From Massalongia carnosa (Eukaryota), in assembly GCA_965645245.1 (NCBI GenBank), contig OZ287074.1, positions 372,001-436,000 on the forward strand: a stretch of DNA of 64,000 nt. Reading direction: 5' to 3'. This document shows, one piece after another, positions 29,874 through 57,400 of this stretch. How positions within the stretch are numbered: the stretch's first letter is position 1; each line of letters opens with the position of its first letter. The notes under the pieces were generated by a model. It had not been told where the DNA came from and did not search any database. It saw nothing but the letters and a program-made list of their open reading frames with translations. The translations under genes were made by a program, and so were the position numbers.

Positions 29874-31304
29874 TGTTGCCGGTTGGAGTATTTGGGAAGC
29901 TGCCAACGGAGGGTATATTGGCTCGAGTTTTTTTTTGTGTGAGGGGGGGGGTGGTAAGGGCAAAATGTGGAAGATACAAGGTATGTAGAAATCGTTAGAA
30001 AATCCCTCTGTAGATTTTTTCCCGAGGTCGTGTTTATGTGCGTGAACCCGCTCACGACCAAGTCCGGGCGCCCTACGAAAACGATGAATTCCCCCTTCGC
30101 TACCCGGCTCACCCGTCTGGGTATATATTCTCGCTCCACCTCTTCCTCCTCTTTTCTTCCTTATGTCGACTTTACTTCATAGAATCAATTCTATAGTAAA
30201 CGTCCTCTTCTGAGCTCCTTACCAGAGCCACAGAATCTCCAACCCGGCTGATGACTTATGTCCTCGGTGCTCCAGAGTGATGCTTCAGATACTCTCGTAA
30301 TCCACACCCTGCTTGCTACCGTCTTCGACTGTGTGACTTTTGCTTTCGGGCATTGGGAGGCATCGGAACGGTGGCTTGAGGGAGAGAGTTTGGTGATGAT
30401 CTCAACCCCGTCTCGGTGCCTGGCTTCGGCCGACTGAACGGGGAGAGTGCTGATGGAGATCTGACGGGTCTTGCGTTGTTATGTTTTGTCTGATAAAAGT
30501 TATCCTAGATATTTGATGGCAACGGATTGTTCTTTTCTTTGGCTTTATGTCATAGCGCTTTTGGGTAGATGTGGTAGTCTTAGAAAACCATTTATCGTTC
30601 ATCACCTATTCATTAGACCATTTATTCCATGTCCATATTCAATGAAAATAAAATCGTGATAGCTATATGTACCATGCACTTGGTTCAACTGCCCTCCAAC
30701 CGCCCGTGCCGCCTTCATCTGATTCTAATCCATACAAGTACCATTAACTTTATGTCTACATTGTTATTGTCCCTAAGCCATCTCTCCCTCTTCTCTGCAC
30801 AGTTTCTGTAGCTGAATGCTCATGTCTAGAACTATGACATTCATTCTCGTTACGAGGAAGGAGTTGTCTTCAATAAATGTTTTGTGGGACAAAATTTCTC
30901 TTCCGCGCTTACGTTAACCGAGTTAGGCTTTATATTCCTTCCTGCAGTTTTTTTTTACCTTTGCTGCTGCCCACGAGCTTGTCAATATCTAACTTACATA
31001 CCAAAATCTAGAGCAAGTTTTACGCCCAAAACTTGGGCTGGTTGATTCGTCATCTGCGCCGCGGAAAGGGGAGTTGGCGGCTACGAGGTACAGACTCATA
31101 CTAACTGCTATACTTTATACGACTTTCCTCCGCTTAGTTCCCTAGATTATTTTAATTTACATCCGGACACCAGCAGTACAGGCTGCAGGAAACTGGGGAT
31201 AGTGCCTAAGTTGATTGATTGATTGCTTGACCACGAGGAGTTGATCGACCATCAATCTCCCATACAACGCCACCTATGCTGGGGGGTAGCCATGTTGATT
31301 TGAA

Positions 31305-45652: not shown

Positions 45653-47670
45653 CTACGAATTATGGGGAGTCGAATGAGTGTCACTCGCTGTTGCAGCAGG
45701 CTTTACTGCCGGAATGGTGGCTGTCCCAGGACCAGACTCGGCACTGACCAATGCAGTAGTTTCAATCGTTGCTTCTGGAGATATTGTTGTGGTTTTCTGG
45801 ATAGCCGACGCAGCTGTGGTTTGTGAGAGTTTTGGAGTATTCGGATTGGGCGTATCCCCTCCTCCTCTGCTATGCCTGCCTCCTCTCCGGATAGATCCTC
45901 CTCTTCCACCTCTGGGGCCCATCTGTGTACCTCCTCCACCTCTAGCAACTGTTGGTGCACCTCCTCCACGATTGTTTGAGATATGACTTCCAGTTCTTAC
46001 ATTCCGCGTTTGAAGTGAAGGACCAACCTTGCGTTCTAGCACGACAACCTGGCCTTGGGCAACCTTGATAGGACTTGCTTTGATGGCATCTTGTAACCCT
46101 TGCGGCTCCGCAAAATCTACGTATGCGAACCCCTTCTTCTTGTCAATCTCAACTTTCTTGACAGTACCAAATGAAGCGAATGCTTCCTCCAACAACACCT
46201 CAGTGATCCCCTGAGAAGGGTTGGCATGTTTCAGAAAGGCCTGAGTTGCATTCGGCGACGCTGAAGAATGCTTTACAGAAACGCTGAACGAGCTTGAATT
46301 TGCAGCCTTCGAATCAGATTGAAGGTTTGTTTTAGAAGCTGACCTAGAAGCGGCAGGACCCCGGGGAGGATGATTACTGTTTGGAGACTTAGGTGCAATG
46401 GCCGTTGTGGTTGGTAGGACGAAGGGTATAGCTAATTCTTTAATATTAGAATCAGGTAGGACGCCTGTTCCTGCCTCCTTGTATTGCTGAGCTGGTGATA
46501 GATTTTGTTTTGAAGTAGTAGAGCTCATGGTTTTGGATAGAGATTTGGCTGTAATGGCTGGAGCCCCTCCTCTTCTCTCGCCTTTCCCAGGATTGTTTGT
46601 AGTAAGACCCAGGTCGCGTTGTAGGATCTTTGCTGCAGCACTAGCATTACCACGCTCACGTCTTTTGTCCCCTAGCGGAGCATTAAAATTAGAGCTTGGT
46701 ATTGCTGCTGTTTTTGGATTAACCGATGAAGATACCGAACCTTTAGTTTTGTCCACTGCCTGCTTGTTGATCACACGGACCACATCTCGAGCAGCCTTTT
46801 CAACCTTGATAGCTTGTGCACTCCTTTGATCAGGAGATGAAGCATTGATACTTTCAGCCTTAGGAAGCTTTCTATCCTGCACTGGGCTTGATCTGTTATC
46901 GTTGGAATCTTGTCGAGTGTGCTTGCTTCCTTTTGGTGCTGAGACAATTTCTTTGCCCTTGTTCGCCTTCTTGTCCCTTAAGTATTGAATCAACGGAGTA
47001 ATGGTAACCTTTTCTTTACTTTTGCTAGCAGCATCACTCGCTTGGTCAACTGGTGTGGACTTCGTGATTGGATTCGTAAGGCTTTCTAGGAAATCAATGA
47101 ATTCTTGGTCTTGGTCAATCGTACCTTGACGTAGATCTTTTCGCCCTCGGTTGGTGGGAACACGGCCATGGGGGGCATACTCGACAGACGGTGGTCCTAG
47201 TAGAGCTGGATCCTTTGCGGAGCCTTTCACATCATTGAACACGGTATTTTGAACGTAGTCAGACAAGCGGCTTATATACTCCCATTTTGTTAGGTGCAGG
47301 TAAGCCCGAGCTGGTCTTGATGGCTTTGATGGACTATTGAGGTAACAGTCAGTACATTAAGCCTTAAGAATTACATCGAGAAATTGATCTACTCTTTCGA
47401 GACCTTTCCTTCCTTGTAATTTGTCCAGTCAACCATGCCCCCATTTATCTTCCAATCATCCCCTAGGATAGATTCGAACTCAGGTAAAGTCAGACCCGGC
47501 GGTAGCCGTCTTATTACAATTTTCAGTCTTGGGGTAACGACCTTGGTGAAAGGTCGTACCGAACCTGCTGGCGTACGTTTCTGGGTTACGGAAGCTGGTA
47601 TAGAGAGTACTCCATTTGCACGACTAGACACATTCTTTAGAGTCAATTGGCGAGGTGAGGAAGATGACAT
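45653..47670 (-). CDS. UPF3: Nonsense-mediated decay factor Upf3 (Smg-4/UPF3 domain) with a C-terminal RRM, two exons
   Basis: RLKIVIRRLPPGLT...YKEGKVSK|..SKPSRPARAYLHL...GPPSVEYAP...GTIDQDQEFIDFLESL; C-terminal AFLKHANPSQGITE...KKGFAYVDF. Confidence 0.9.
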
Positions 47671-48333: not shown

Positions 48334-49735
48334 ATGCCTGATACCAAGGTTCCACAGCCTGGGCCGGCAAAGCTCACAAAAGGTTCCGGGCCTGATGAAT
48401 GGCTAAAGGCTGCGCTGAACAATCAGCATTTACCGGAGGGTATCATGAAGAAGCTTTGTGAGATGTGCAAAGAGTTATTAATGGAAGGTGAATGCGGCTT
48501 GAAATTAGTCCTCTTTCCAACTATAAGCCTGACATCTTTATTCCAGAATCCAATATCCAGCCGGTGTCAACTCCAGTGACAATTTGTGGTGATCTACATG
48601 GCCAATTCTACGACGTACTCGAGCTTTTCCGTATTGCAGGTGGAGTTCCTAGCGATGATCAAGTAGAGGCATCGCCTGCCCCAACGAACGTTATCACCTC
48701 TGATGATATTGAACCCCCTTCAAAGATTACCGATCCGAAGCTGAAAAGAAAGATGAGAAAGGTAACTTCGCAAGACCCAGGAGGAGAAAGTAGTACAGCT
48801 AGCAGTGGCATCAGTGACGACGATGATGATGGAGAGGAGATGCGCGGTCGAAAACGTGCTAGTGGTAACGGGGCGAGTCTAGGCATCGAGAAGGAGGGTA
48901 ATACAGGTATCCCTGGAAATCAAAACTATGTCTTTCTCGGAGATTTCGTCGACCGTGGATATTTCAGCCTGGAAACCCTTACTTTACTGTTGTGTTTGAA
49001 GGCTAGGTACATTCATAGAAAATTTTACCCAGATTCAACGCTAATCACTTTCAGTTAGATATCCGGACCGAATCACCCTCGTTCGCGGCAACCATGAGTC
49101 ACGCCAAATCACCCAAGTATATGGCTTTTATGAGGAGTGTCAGGTAAAGTATGGAAACGCTTCGGTTTGGAAGTGCTGTTGCCAAGTCTTTGACTTCCTT
49201 GTTCTGGGAGCTGTGGTTGACGGGAAAGTTCTTTGTGTTCATGGAGGTTTAAGTCCAGAAATTCGAACTCTCGACCAAATACGCGTCATTGCTCGTGCCC
49301 AAGAGATACCCCATGAAGGTGCCTTTTGCGACCTTGTATGGAGCGATCCCGAAGACGTGGGAACATGGGCTATATCTCCTAGAGGCGCTGGATGGCTATT
49401 TGGGAACAAAGTCGCCACGGAGTTCAATCATGTGAATGGATTCCAGCTTATTGCGCGGGCTCATCAACTTGTCAATGAAGGGTACAAGGTACTTGCGAAC
49501 CTTTCTTCTGCTGTGTAGCAGGCTGCTTACATATATTACACAGTGGCATTTTGATGATAAATCGGTCGTTACTGTTTGGAGTGCTCCGAATTACTGCTAC
49601 CGTTGTGGCAACGTTGCCTCTATTATGAATCTAGGGGAAGATTTAAATCCACGCTTCACCATCTTCTCTGCGGTGCCTGACTATCAACGAGCGGTACCAA
49701 TTGCTACTGGTCGTCGAACTGAATATTTCCTTTGA
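48334..49735 (+). CDS. PPG1: PP2A-like Ser/Thr phosphatase Ppg1, 4 exons
   Basis: [29 protein letters not shown] and C-terminal EYFL; the low-complexity insertion between GDLHGQ and GDFVDRG and the [10 protein letters not shown]-terminus match the fungal Ppg1 clade as I recall it. Confidence 0.88.
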
Positions 49736-50371
49736 GGCAGGTTAGTCTCCACCTATGACCCGCTTTGTTTGTCAGAATACCTACACTTTGTTCTTTAGCG
49801 GCATTGTTAATACCTTACCGCGAGACATGACACAGCATGTAAGGGCGGCGTTATTCGAATAGCTTCGTCTTTGTTGGTTTCAAACAGTGTATGTAAGAAG
49901 GATGAAGACTGCACGTACTGTACGATATCGAAGATGGACATCTTATACGTGGCAATGGATATGCCCATGTCGAGAGCATTGATGCGATGATCGAGTTTTC
50001 TGTCTGCTCGTACTTAGAAAAACCTATGAACATTCATCTTTGAAACTCATAGCCCTATAACTGATCCTGACACGATTGTTCATTAATAAACTGCTCTTAG
50101 TGAGAAGTTGTGATAGACTAAAAATCTTGCCATCCAAAGACTCACACTTCCACCTTGAAACCTTAGACGTTTTTCCCCCGGGAGATATTGCAGGTAATAG
50201 CAAATGAACAAAAGTTATAACATTATCTAGATATAACGAAGGGGAAAGCCCTTTCGCCTTGCCCAATTGGAAACCTATTCTTGGCCCAACCCCCTTTTTG
50301 GGAATAACGATTTGGACAATTAAGATATATTGATTCATAAACCAAAAAATGACATTTCCATAGAGTGAAAT

Positions 50372-50498
50372 GGGCCTGTGGCGCAACGGTAGCGCGCTGT
50401 AAGTGACTAAAATTCAAGTAAATCGTGAATCTCATAATTAACAATATGTGTAGCGACTCCAGATCGAGTGGTTGCCAGTTCAAATCTGACCGGGCTCA
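50372..50498 (+). tRNA. tRNA-Trp(CCA) interrupted in the anticodon stem by a 55-nt GT-AG insert (50399-50453)
   Basis: Joining 50372-50398 to 50454-50498 gives GGGCCTG TG GCGC AACGGTA GCGC G CTCGA CT CCA GA TCGAG TGGTT GCCAG TTCAAAT CTGAC CGGGCTC A (72 nt). The anticodon and D stems pair perfectly, A and B boxes are present, and TTTTT follows at 50501-50505. The T stem has one C-A mismatch. Confidence 0.85.
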
Positions 50499-52268
50499 AA
50501 TTTTTGCTTCAATTTTAGTTTTTACGCTATGAGCTCAACTTAATATGATATAATAAATCGATACTGCTAAAATTAATTTATGGTATGAAAGTAGGGTTCT
50601 AATTTACAGTTCACACTCCTCCGCCTTGGTCCAGAATCGTAGGCATAGAATTATAATGACGTACGTACATACCATACCGCCTTGGTATACGGCTAGGACT
50701 GATCCCCATGCCTGCATGTAAGGTACCCGGAGGGAATATCACTTCTAATACATAAGGCAGCTTTGTTGTCAAGTATTGAAAGTTAACGGTCTGGTTGGCG
50801 AGTACTTTGGCATTGCTGGCGCTGCTTATCTGGTTTTAGATTGCATTAAATATAGGTACTATCGGGGCGTCAAGGCGTAGCTTGCGGAGCTGGGCTTGAT
50901 TTGACCAAAAATGACATGACGACTAGGAAATTAACAGTGGGAAGTAGAAAGCATTCGAGACGAGGAACCCAAAGCGAGCTCAATGCCGATCTATACACCA
51001 CTTTCGTAATAGCCGACTATTGGAAGTCAACCACGAGGCCCAATATGTTCTGAACACGACACTCGGTACTCGGCAATTTAAGATGTCGTCGCCGAAAATG
51101 CTAGAATAGGAGGAAATGCGCCAAAGTAATGGCTAAGAGCGGACCTAGGTGGTGGATTTCCTTTAGTCAGCAAACTATCAGAAACAGAATCTTCTACCTC
51201 CTATTTTCATAGCTCACATGATACAATAACGTACTCTAAGCTTGGCTACTATTTATGCCATTTTTTCCCGTTTCTAGACGTAGAAATCTCTCAATCAGTG
51301 TTTGATAGACCAATTGCAGGTGGGTACTTATACGACGTTATTCTAAGAGTATAGAATAGTGAAGGGCCTTCCACTTTGAAGCAAATCCGTCATCACAGAG
51401 GAGAGTAAACCCATTGCCAAGTAGAAATAAGATGTTTGAACGACGATAGTATAGGAAATAGGCTGCATCAAGACAACTGAGGAAAATGGACATAATAAAA
51501 AATTCGAGACGGGGCAGATCGCTTCCTTCTGATAAGGGTACTCTATGGGGGCATCCCATGACTTGATAGTGTTTCTTTCTTATTATTACATCCAAGTTTA
51601 ATATTAGTTTTATTTGGAACGGTTTCTGATGGCGATCTCTGCGTACCTGATAAAATACTGATAACGAGTAGGCGATCCTAAGTGCTCATGACTCAACGAG
51701 CAACGCACTTGAGCCCAGCCTGTAGAGCCGTGACGAGATCCTTCGAAGGTACGTCCATAGAGGAGTCTTTAAGAAAACATAAATAACAAGAACAAAGGCA
51801 AATATTTCGAAGGAAAAAACCCCCTATTAGATGAGAGATATTTTAGCCCAAGCCTAACAGCGACATACTCTTCACTTATTCATTGGGCCAAATTCGATCT
51901 GATTGGATCAGTGTGTTTTAGAATAAAGACAGCCACACGAAAAACAAAATAAAGATAACTGCAACGCGTTAGAGTAAGTACCTCCTCTAGTATAGAGGTC
52001 GTTGAGCGTATGCACTCTACCCCCGATGAGGACAAGATATGCTACCTTTAGAGCCTTGTGATATATGTTTCTAAGCGCCTGCCCTATGATATTAGCTGAA
52101 CGTTGGACAAAGGTCAAGCCTATAAGGATTGTAGGAGGGGTTTTCTAGTAATTTATCGATCGGTTCTTGTTAAAGACAACTATTGTAGCACCACTAATTA
52201 TTTATTTCCATCGAGCAAGTATCGTAGCAAAGCTGTGAACAGCAAATTAGGGCAAATCTATTCTTCAT

Positions 52269-53142
52269 GATGATAATTCTTACTCCGATGTGGTACCAGC
52301 CGAAGGCCGACCCATGCGGGCAAGTCTATGGGATTATATAGGGAATTAATACCGGGACACCCCTTTTCACTACCTTGACACCCTCATTCTCTAGGTTAAC
52401 ACCCCCAAGTAAGCTAACTCGATTGAGTATAAATTTCCCTCGGACGCAGAAACAACTGAAGAAAACATTCTCGATTCGATGAAATTCAGGTGTTTTAGAC
52501 AGTCGTTTGATGCTTTCTCGATGATCGTTTTCAATGAAAATGAGCTTCATTTCGTATTTACATTCGAAAGGCCTGAAACAAATCCACATCATCTACTTCA
52601 ATCGATTGGATAGCTTCACCGGAGACCACCTCTTCATCTTGTGACGGCTCATCATTCCCCTCTCTGCCCCGTCCACGCCCTCGCCCCCGTCCTCGCCCTC
52701 GCCCCCGTCCTCGCCCTCGCCCCCGTCCTCGACCTCGCCTCCGCCTCCGCCTCGGAGGCCCATTCAACATCTCCTCGACATCTTCGAACCCTGCTAACTC
52801 CCGTCGAGTAGAGTTATCAGCCTTTCGTTGCTCTTTCCGATTGTAAACGCATCGCGATTGTAGGACGCATGAAATGCATGCAAGGTATGAGTGCAGAAAT
52901 TTTCGAAGTTCCAGCTCCGGAACGGATAAACTACCCAATCTGGTTAGCTTATTTTGGGGTGTTAACCTAGAGAATGAGGGTGTCAAGGTAGTGAAAAGGG
53001 GTGTCTCGGTATTAGTTCCCTAATTATTTGTTCCTATGGAGCGTAACATTGAATGTCTGAGTTTGCAAAACTTGATTACATGTTTCGCGGTTTGTTTTGG
53101 CCAGCCACATAGACACTTCGGTGTCAAGACGTCGGGAACGCG
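52269..53142 (-). mobile_element. 5'-truncated non-LTR retrotransposon (Tad1-like LINE) remnant interrupted by a TIR element
   Basis: Flanked by the perfect 15-bp direct repeat AAATCTATTCTTCAT (52254-52268 and 53143-53157). 53142-53021 encodes RVPDVLTPKCLCGWPKQTAKHVIKFC, a CCHC knuckle like the LINE ORF2 C-terminus. The 3' end has a short ATC-repeat tail. Confidence 0.75.
52341..53020. mobile_element. 680-bp non-autonomous DNA transposon (MITE-like) with about 89-bp terminal inverted repeats
   Basis: 52341-52429 and 52932-53020 are ungapped inverted repeats (7 mismatches by my count) starting GGGAA, with TA on both outer sides. The interior has a short minus-strand remnant (STRRELAGFEDVEE...GRGRGR) and no full transposase. 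Confidence 0.88.
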
Positions 53143-53180: not shown

Positions 53181-53251
53181 TGCATCGACCGGGAATCGAA
53201 CCCGGGGCTGGCCGATGGCAACGGCCAATTTTACCACTAAACCACCAATGC
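53181..53251 (-). tRNA. tRNA-Gly(GCC), intronless
   Basis: Reverse complement GCATTGGTGGTTTAGTGGTAAAATTGGCCGTTGCCATCGGCCAGCCCCGGGTTCGATTCCCGGTCGATGCA folds into a 71-nt cloverleaf with a GCC anticodon; a T-run terminator lies just downstream. Confidence 0.95.
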
Positions 53252-54409: not shown

Positions 54410-57400
54410 AGATGTCTATGCCATATCCTAAGCGGTCTCAAGCTGTAATAGGGCATCTAGAGAGATAAGAAGTGAAAGGTGGCTGAATACGTGCAATGTA
54501 AAGGATCGTCTCACTACTAAGCATGAACAACTTTCTACGGACTCTAAACCATAGGGATTTTAGGATTCGTCAGTTTTACCTAAGGAATGAGCCATGCATT
54601 GATAATCATCTAGGATGGAGTTTAAGTACTGAATAGAATTAGGTTTATATAATTTAATAAAATCCAATTTTTTGGCTGTAATGGTCACAATTTAAGAAGA
54701 TTCCATATTACCACTTGAGCTTCCCACCAAACTTTACCGAAAATTCTAGGTGCCCAGTTCGAATCCGGCGGTAGTTTTCAACTCGTGTGGGTAGCCCACG
54801 AAGCTTGTTGGCTCTAAGCAATGAAGATGATTCTTGAGGGAAGTAATTCTGCAGAGACATTTTCACCGCCGGATGGCGATATTGGATTACATCTGCTTTC
54901 GATTTGGGGTGTTTGAATTGGTTGGATAATCAACTTTTTTTTGATTACAGTTTATCTATTAGTTATACGCTTCGATCTACTTTTAATAAATAAATAACAG
55001 ATCATCAATACTAAAGTTTATTCTTAGCCAGGTAAGGTAACGTCTTAATCCTACACCTCAGATTAGATTCTTTAAGATACAAGAGGGGCACTGTGCTAGT
55101 AAATTCTCATCATACAAGCGGCCGAGGTCAGGATCTCCCTCAGCGCTCCATGATAACTTACTCTCTACAGGATGGCGGGATGTTCTCAGCCGAAACCCGG
55201 TGAGGTGAGAAGCACATGTTTCAGGAACCAAAAGTAGAAAGCAGCACACGTATCCGTGCAATGCAAGACACATTAAAATCCTAGCCCTACCTGCATATTC
55301 GTGGTGGCATGAACATTTGAGGATCATTGGGCGGGACACCGCGTACACGAAGTAATGGCTTAGCTGCTTCAGTGCTGTGTTACATGGTTCAAGACAAGAA
55401 TCTTGCAACATCAAAGTCAAATGGATGACGAAGCTGGCTGTATGTCCAATATCGGACTGCCGAATTGATTATGATGTCTCGCATCAAAGCCGCTTGCCTA
55501 CAACGCTCTGCGCCTCTGATAGCCATTTTGGAGGCTGCAGTACTCTGTACACCAGAGCTGAACCGTCGTAGCAAGCTCGGAGATGCAGAGCTTGGGAGCT
55601 TGAAGCCAGAATACTTGGATGTTCTGCATCATGATTGGTCAGTCAAGTACAGAGTAGTGAAAAGCGGAGAATCTGATCTCAAGAACGACTGCCCAGCTCC
55701 GAAATCCTAAAGATGAGACACTCGATGTTTTTGTACTCCCTTCTGCCTAATTCACCTCATTGCTCTTACAAGCGAGTACTCCGTACCCCGCCAGGCCCAC
55801 ACAGTAAGGCTAATCGAATTTAGAGACCAACTCATACCAAATTTACTTTTGAGTTACCCTACCCCGTAAATTCCTTTTTTCAGACCCAAACAACTCTCTC
55901 CCGGTTATGGATTGCTCGTAGTTGCATCACAGGATATCTCGTCCACAGACCGCCATCAACGCAATGATCACAGAAAGTCCAATGAAGCGAAACGAGCGCA
56001 TCAACGGGCGCATCCAAACTCGATCACCGATGCAGCAAGGATCGCTTGCTATCTGCCTGCATGGAAGGCCATTTCAGAGGCCTTAGAAGCCGCCAATCGC
56101 AAGAATCACCGGCTGTTTGGGCTAATGCATAACCCTTGTAGATCTGCCCGTGCAATGGGACTGGACGCATGGTGGGGCTCTCTGTGCAACGCGAGCTGGC
56201 TTTGTGATGGTCATGCATGATCCGTGTTGTTTGGTGGAAGGCTTTCGCTGGGCGTTAGGGGCGACCAGCCAATGACGGGCGCCGCTGAAATACACTCCAA
56301 AACTCAAACGATTCGCGGTGAGGAAGTACTAGCAGCGAGAGGTTGACTCAATCGCAACAAACTTGGACATCCTATCATTGAGTCCAAGATTACAGTAGTC
56401 TTAAGACAGCGGCCTGTCGAGTGGGACGTAAGGCGACTCACGAACAGAACATAGCAAAGCAAATGGTAGAAGTAACTTATGACGGATTGGGTTTTTAAGT
56501 GTGTCGATGATTACTATTGGCGGTTTAGCCAGGGTCAAAGTTTCGGGTGCGGACAGGTCCAGGTGCTGCCTGCGCAAGCTTCTCCTTTTCGTTGGGACAC
56601 CAAGGGCGGAGTCGTGCAGCATCCCCCATGAAGACTTATCGTAAGGGAACGGCCCCACGAGCGCAAAACGGCCGGGTACAAGCAAGATTTTAACTACGAG
56701 CCTCCTATTCTGTATACTGGATAGAGCCTCAAAACGCATCCATACGGATCATTGCCAAAAGAAAGGCGCATGTGCCACCAACAGGGCGTCGTCAAACACG
56801 AACAGCCTTCGTGCGGGATGGAACCAAATACTTTGAGGAGAATTAGGCGGCATCGCTTTCGCCTAACCAAAGGGTAGATGCAGTTCCCTTTCAGCTCTTG
56901 TATACTCCGTACAGCGTGCTCTGGAGGTGAGCCCACGACAACATGATACTGCTGACGTGATAAGAGAAAGCCGACGTATCATGCTGACAATACTGATCCC
57001 CACAGACACGAAGTACCTTTACAGTAAATGCGCATGTAATATATTGTAGAAGGTATTGGTTGCTTTGAAGGTGGGGGTGAATATATAGGTCGTTATAATC
57101 ACGCGAGAGGCTGTAATTGAAAGTTCCCCGAGGCAATGGTGAATCAGAAAAGCAGGCAAAACAGGAATGAGGAACAATCAAAAATCCCAGGACTCAGGAG
57201 GACATGTTGCATCATAATGCCTACTGCATTGACAGGTCTCGTGGGGGAACCCAGAGCATCCCAATAAGGCACCCATACTCCCTTCGTAACGGCCCAAAGA
57301 ACAAGTCTCGCTTACCGCTCCAGCAGCGTGAACTGTGAATGGGTGAGAGTACGTTACTCTGCACTAGAGGAAAGACTGAAGGGAGAAAGAGGAGTTGCCT

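Follow-up and report, generated by a model that had tools for sequence, protein, structure and literature searches.

A tRNA-Trp(CCA) Gene Split within Its Anticodon Stem by a Putative Spliceosomal Intron in a Lichen-Forming Ascomycete

The 64,000-nucleotide stretch of Massalongia carnosa DNA analysed here (contig OZ287074.1, positions 372,001 to 436,000; hereafter the window, numbered from its first letter) comes from a lichen-forming ascomycete and carries, at 50372-50498 on the + strand, a gene for tRNA-Trp with the anticodon CCA that is interrupted by 55 nt. The insert lies between canonical positions 28 and 29, in the 5′ strand of the anticodon stem, and bears at its ends the signals of a U2-type mRNA intron. 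Those signals are conserved in other lineages whose tRNA-Trp genes are split at the same point, and the exons around them evolve under purifying selection with compensatory changes in their stems. We consider it probable, on the strength of the sequence comparisons described below, that this is a functional nuclear gene with a true U2-type intron, which the spliceosome would remove from a precursor tRNA probably made by RNA polymerase III (Pol III). From the same comparisons we infer that the spliceosome performs the excision, that Pol III is the polymerase, and that the gene may be the main or only source of tRNA-Trp.

Results

An insert with intron signals at both borders

An initial annotation of the window had proposed exons, an insert, splice signals, and a terminator at this locus, and when the sequence was re-read and checked by script all of its coordinates proved correct to the base. 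The features of the gene are as follows.

50372-50398, + strand: exon 1 of tRNA-Trp, 27 nt (acceptor 5′ strand, D arm, G26, C27, T28)
50379-50389, + strand: A-box-like region of exon 1, read from the sequence
50399-50453, + strand: insert with U2-type intron signals, 55 nt, longest T run 2
50399-50404, + strand: donor hexamer GTAAGT, the first bases of the insert
50437-50442, + strand: branch-like box ATTAAC, with the putative branch A at 50441, 12 nt from the end of the insert
50451-50453, + strand: acceptor TAG, the last bases of the insert
50454-50498, + strand: exon 2 of tRNA-Trp, 45 nt (remaining anticodon stem, loop CTCCAGA, variable loop, T arm, acceptor 3′ strand, discriminator A)
50459-50461, + strand: anticodon CCA, within the loop CTCCAGA
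50475/50489, + strand: C50.A64 mismatch in the T stem of the script-folded tRNA
50478-50486, + strand: B-box-like region of exon 2, read from the sequence
50501-50505, + strand: T5 run resembling a Pol III terminator, 2 nt beyond the discriminator base

The borders of the insert are fixed and cannot slide: its last base is not the same as the one that precedes it, nor is its first base the same as the one that follows it. When 50399-50453 was removed by script, ARAGORN returned a tRNA-Trp(cca) of 72 nt whose anticodon stem has 5 bp, the outcome that the initial annotation had foreseen; the single C-A mismatch that it had flagged in the T stem was confirmed. The anticodon loop is whole, with nothing inserted at 37/38, where introns of the endonuclease type are positioned. 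The layout of the two box regions was read by eye against the Pol III consensus.

In size and layout the insert matches the mRNA introns of this organism, as had been suggested at the outset: the three introns of an adjoining phosphatase gene measure 59, 52, and 55 nt, and in two of them a CTRAY box stands 14 nt ahead of YAG. The phosphatase donors fit the consensus less well than does the GTAAGT of the tRNA insert. These three introns serve as our mRNA reference, de novo intron calling from open reading frames (ORFs) being too noisy. By itself the combination of signals is common; the pattern GTAAGT..YTRAY..YAG occurs three times in the window against 2.23 expected and so is not enriched. What is not attributable to chance is its exact fit to both borders of the insert and its recurrence in other lineages. 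Within the 64-kb window the insert has no second copy of the kind that an introner might leave.

The same split in other lineages

Our genomic comparisons covered the 64-kb window, a metagenome collection, and the contigs of four sequencing runs (Logan; apparently DNA, or of unrecorded kind), one DNA run containing the locus being labelled a lichen metagenome. The metagenomes were scanned with a pattern that specified 17 nt from the D arm together with the anticodon loop of 7 nt and left 45-75 bases between them free. Seventeen loci were recovered, and 12 of them are tRNA-Trp(CCA) genes split at exactly 28/29 by inserts of 47-52 nt. Four others are uninterrupted tRNAs of different kinds with a chance match downstream, and the last (L006:393-502, + strand) is the ordinary tRNA-Trp of another eukaryote, which has an anticodon-adjacent (37/38-type) intron and scores 50.3 bits with Rfam. 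The same pattern produced three matches in prokaryote genomes, none of them a split Trp gene, and no match in viral contigs. The split genes are listed below.

L012, L004, and L001 (L014 is identical to L001): inserts of 47-48 nt, GTAAGT..CTAAT/CTAAA..TAG
L005: insert of 52 nt, GTGAGC..ACTAAT..CAG
Seven JAABU* loci (L003, L007, L008, L010, L013, L015, L016): inserts of 49-51 nt, GTAAGA..GTTAAT..TAG
L003:316-487, - strand: example of a tRNA-Trp gene with two inserts, at 28/29 and in the variable loop; likewise L007, L008, L010, L013, L015, and L016

Counting the window, all 13 genes have a GTRNGT-like donor exactly at the upstream border, and YAG (TAG or CAG) stands exactly at the downstream border of all 13 first introns and of the seven second introns described below. 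A YTRAY box stands 9-12 nt ahead of the 3′ border in five of six distinct first introns (ACTAAT, GCTAAT, or GTTAAT, and ATTAAC in the window) and in every second intron; the exception, L001 with its identical partner L014, has the near match ACTAAA. The splice signals formed no part of the scan pattern, and the border signals are therefore not an artefact of the search. A lack of conserved donor, branch, and acceptor signals in orthologous loci was among the findings that the initial annotation had said would count against its proposal; they are present in all 12 split loci.

Scored against shuffles, the interior of the window insert bears no likeness to those of the other lineages (z from -1.1 to 1.5). 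Among the four lineages outside the window the insert sequences are distinct or at most faintly alike, the JAABU insert having no significant likeness to the rest. Because the interiors of the window insert and of the others are unlike, conservation of the ends reflects selection and not recent descent. Exon 1 of the window recurs in L012, L004, and L001 apart from base 27. Runs of T5 to T9 follow the gene in all related loci, at a distance of no more than about 6 nt except in L005 (about 12 nt), and the flanks are wholly different between lineages. An intron at this position is present in at least four lineages besides that of the window and is evidently old.

One lineage, the JAABU group, evidently acquired a further intron of this type. 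In all seven loci the variable loop is split at AG|GTT (45/46) by 50 nt, GTAAATCATA..CTGAT..TAG, with GTAAAT as the donor; four placements of this insert are possible, and GT-AG borders arise in only one. Depending on the locus, the box is CTGAT, CTAAT, or TTGAT and the end TAG or CAG. All three substitutions that strike these signals keep to the consensus, affecting an R and a Y position of the box and the Y before AG. In the seven loci 19 of the 50 columns of intron 2 vary, while the exons are invariant.

Selection on the exons and on pairing across the insert

In the JAABU group all 72 exon columns are invariant, whereas variation affects 24 of the 100 intron columns (Fisher p=7e-7) and 56 of the 300 in the 5′ flank (Fisher p=4e-6). 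Since 24 exon positions were fixed by the search pattern, the fair exon count is 0/48, which still differs from that of the introns (p=6e-5).

When the genes of six lineages are spliced by script, 123 of 126 stem cells pair, and both partners have changed at seven pairs (3:70, 4:69, 6:67, 27:43, 51:63, 52:62, and 53:61) spread over the acceptor, anticodon, and T stems. The intron lies between the partners of pair 27:43, which is C-G in the window and T-A elsewhere. A formal count was made on five rows, without L003, whose third exon MAFFT had misplaced, the six-lineage table being the work of a script. In that count 97.1% of cells pair and six pairs are doubly changed, a result that none of 500 shuffles reaches and from which slid registers fall far short. 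In a pseudogene the stems should decay freely and selection should not set the gene apart from its surroundings; neither pattern is seen here. The proposal from which we started, that of a spliceosomal-type intron in a working tRNA gene, thus gains support both from the 12 split loci and from exon covariation across the insert.

Run X4, from another individual of the species, differs from the window by seven bases and one indel in the 2 kb around the gene, with no difference in the exons and one, a neutral T>C at 50426, in the middle of the intron; the differences are too few for a test. Three of the seven, at 50355, 50356, and 50363, fall close together within the 17 nt that precede the tRNA gene.

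Detection by standard scanners

The initial annotation expected standard tRNA scanners to miss genes of this form, and by and large they do. ARAGORN reports no tRNA at this locus in the native window sequence, and across the six lineages its default settings call Trp(cca) in 6/6 script-spliced genes but 0/6 unspliced ones. With the intron option it calls three of the six unspliced genes, two with nonsense anticodons and the other, L005, as a Trp tRNA with a misplaced 51-nt intron, and at relaxed thresholds it calls the window gene Val(aac); we regard these intron-option and relaxed-threshold calls as spurious. Rfam fares somewhat differently. Its tRNA model RF00005 matches 50372-50498 (+ strand) over its full length at 34.8 bits, above the gathering score of 29, while skipping 68 nt as a single insertion; the score is low because the model passes over the entire anticodon arm. 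Applied to nine metagenome loci at E<=0.01, Rfam recovered two of eight split genes (L004 at 39 bits and L012 at 36.6 bits) in addition to the ordinary L006. Because the scanners overlook split genes, the genomes of such fungi would appear to have no Trp tRNA, or would carry one as a pseudogene entry.

Copy number

In three read sets a single contig passes straight through the 45-nt exon 2, and no other contig matched the gene. We take these contigs to be products of a 31-mer graph, which a second identical copy should then have broken. Their continuity through exon 2 hints that the gene has no second identical copy. The contigs of the four runs contained no joined form of the gene and no extra piece matching 50372-50498, although such contigs demonstrate presence, not absence.

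Discussion

We suggest the following course for expression of this gene. Pol III is most likely the polymerase that transcribes it, given that the A- and B-box regions are intact, that T5 to T9 runs stand behind every gene, and that no intron contains a T run longer than four. Guided by the donor, the branch box, and the acceptor YAG, the spliceosome would then excise the 55 nt from the precursor as a lariat. Only after excision could the anticodon stem and the cloverleaf form, presumably to be followed by end processing and addition of CCA. We favour the spliceosome because what the lineages conserve are the border signals and, 9-12 nt short of the 3′ border, a box, which are the features that a spliceosome reads.

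A number of observations weigh against this proposal. The first exon is very short, and it would be uncapped if made by Pol III; to our knowledge, U6 is the only Pol III transcript that serves as a substrate of the spliceosome. A four-pair helix that includes G.U pairs can be drawn between the 3′ strand of the D stem and the end of the intron. The T stems are irregular, with C50.A64 in the window and L012 and T53.T61 in L001, while L004 replaces the usual G53-C61 with A53-T61; such irregularity may reflect relaxed constraint. Our scan demanded an intact D arm and anticodon loop, which places decayed copies beyond its reach and makes 24 of the 72 exon positions conserved by construction. No coding sequence was evident in the flanks of the metagenome loci (±400 nt) when lists of ORFs were inspected by eye, and uninterrupted Trp-CCA genes may exist elsewhere in the genome.

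The drawable helix raises the question of whether a functional tRNA could be spliced by the tRNA splicing endonuclease and ligase, or by some other nuclease, acting on a fold that resembles a bulge-helix-bulge (BHB). Ectopic tRNA introns do occur in eukaryotes, and many of them are described as having no defined BHB (PMC3978253). We looked for two 3-nt bulges with a 4-bp helix between them and flanking helices, using a simple script and not a dedicated BHB scorer. The central helix of intron 1 has three or four of its four pairs in all eight sequences, and five of the eight contain a four-pair inner run, but that helix requires the 3′ strand of the D stem and includes G.U pairs, the outer helix never exceeds 1 bp in any of the eight, and by calculation some 45% of random sequences reach three of four pairs over the four registers tried. 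The second intron does worse, with only one or two of four central pairs. Taken together, the folds do not support an endonuclease route, which would in addition leave unexplained why GTRAG, a CTRAY box at 9-12 nt, and YAG are conserved in inserts that cannot be aligned. We think this route quite unlikely.

Two further explanations accept less of the proposal or alter its polymerase. The intron could be spliceosomal with the tRNA embedded in a transcript of RNA polymerase II (Pol II), either read-through or a host non-coding RNA extending past the phosphatase gene, in which case the tRNA would be spliced within its host and afterwards released by RNase P and RNase Z. A gene on the same strand does end about 640 nt upstream, and recruitment of the spliceosome is described as normally coupled to Pol II (PMC8527467), but the features that point to Pol III (T5 to T9 runs in every lineage, intron T runs no longer than T4, and intact boxes) speak against such an arrangement, and the wholly different flanks leave no conserved host transcript apparent; we judge it unlikely. 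As for the notion that the split genes are dead and acquired their insert by chance, the work being done by uninterrupted Trp-CCA genes elsewhere, the T-stem mismatches in the window, L012, and L001 and Rfam scores of only 34.8-39 bits could be read in its favour. The low scores, however, stem from the skipped anticodon arm, and C50.A64, being common to the window and L012 despite introns that cannot be aligned, is old and tolerated and no sign of fresh decay. Stems that remain paired in 123 of 126 cells through seven compensatory changes, exons with 0/48 unconstrained columns variable against 24/100 in the introns, and GT, branch, and YAG signals kept in every lineage all disfavour dead copies, and we hold this explanation to be very improbable.

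A functional gene with a spliceosomal intron would nonetheless depart from what is known of tRNA splicing. Canonical eukaryotic tRNA introns lie at 37/38 and are cut out by the tRNA splicing endonuclease, with joining by a ligase, and tRNA splicing is presented as independent of the spliceosome in two reviews (PMC10275265, PMC13149111). Like canonical introns, the inserts described here interrupt a nuclear tRNA gene and have to come out for the anticodon arm to form; unlike them, they sit at 28/29, inside a stem, and at 45/46, and it is sequence signals, not structure, that are conserved. Cyanidioschyzon merolae and the Guillardia theta nucleomorph offer ectopic tRNA introns, attributed in one report to BHB-mediated processing or to undefined structures (PMC3978253). 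These too are introns off 37/38 in tRNA genes of nuclear type, sometimes several to a gene and missed by scanners, but they have no GT-AG or branch signals, whereas in tRNA-Trp spliceosomal signals are conserved and no convincing BHB is found.

Closer parallels exist outside tRNA. GT-AG introns with a branch box interrupt the Pol III-transcribed U6 small nuclear RNA (snRNA) gene of Schizosaccharomyces pombe, and the U1, U2, U5, and U6 genes of Rhodotorula hasegawae carry introns too (Tani and Ohshima 1989, 1991; Takahashi 1993, 1996, cited in PMC5855946). The non-coding RNA hosts of spliceosomal introns listed in that review are U6, U2, U5, U1, and rRNA, and tRNA is not among them (PMC5855946). 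The resemblance to tRNA-Trp lies in a GT-AG intron and branch box within a small, structured, non-coding RNA gene; the difference is that snRNA hosts belong to the spliceosome itself, a proximity that a tRNA does not share. That membership is the usual argument for the gain of snRNA introns by reverse splicing. Lichen-forming ascomycetes also have ectopic spliceosomal introns in their nuclear ribosomal DNA (rDNA) (Bhattacharya 2000, cited in PMC8527467), and yeast is described as removing a 57-bp rDNA intron of Cladonia grayi from Pol I rRNA (PMC8527467). Those introns share with ours the kind of organism, a similar size, and a transcript that Pol II does not make, but their host is a Pol I rRNA and not a 72-nt tRNA, and they vary between species, whereas the tRNA-Trp position is kept across lineages. 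Full-text searches of the literature outside subscription journals found no paper on a spliceosomal intron in a tRNA gene.

Taken further, the comparisons incline us slightly towards a broader view: that in an ascomycete clade including lichen-forming fungi the tRNA that decodes the single Trp codon comes from a gene with one or two spliceosomal introns, kept since before the lineages diverged, so that translation of UGG would depend on the spliceosome acting on a Pol III precursor tRNA. If this is true, tRNA-Trp would become the first known case of spliceosomal splicing in a tRNA; tRNA would join the substrates of that machine, and a second, independent case of a spliced Pol III transcript would be added to the first. 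The introns might then act as a brake that ties the capacity for translation to the capacity for splicing, a role proposed previously for the rDNA introns of lichens. The system would also be a clean one in which to ask how introns enter structured RNAs, the second intron having arrived at an AG|GT site.

Genomic Context

The surroundings of the tRNA-Trp gene contain the following features.

30165-30469, + strand: fungal U3 snoRNA (Rfam), 20 kb upstream of tRNA-Trp
45653-47356, - strand: UPF3-like reading frame, whose best named relatives are only Lecanoromycetes (Letharia, Mycoblastus, Alectoria, Lasallia, Lecanora, and others), at <=63% identity
48226-49735, + strand: gene for a PPP-family (calcineurin-like) phosphatase with three short introns
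48488-48546, + strand: phosphatase intron 1, 59 nt, donor GTGAAT
49007-49058, + strand: phosphatase intron 2, 52 nt, donor GTACAT
49489-49543, + strand: phosphatase intron 3, 55 nt, donor GTACTT
53181-53251, - strand: tRNA-Gly(GCC) (Rfam)
54673-54941, + strand: fungal signal recognition particle (SRP) RNA (Rfam)

No convincing reading frame was found between the end of the phosphatase gene at 49735 and position 52558, the interval in which the tRNA-Trp gene lies, and the U3 snoRNA gene of the window has no intron. With tRNA-Gly(GCC) and the SRP RNA both within 4.5 kb, tRNA-Trp is part of a small cluster of likely Pol III genes. Beside tRNA-Gly, an open frame at 52558-53019 (- strand) encodes a long Arg-Gly dipeptide repeat (RGRGRG...) and matches no family above threshold. 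Within the phosphatase gene, at 49565-49623, short pieces (38-56 nt) of other contigs from runs X1 and X2 match with two to nine differences; these are probably conserved motifs of paralogous phosphatase genes.

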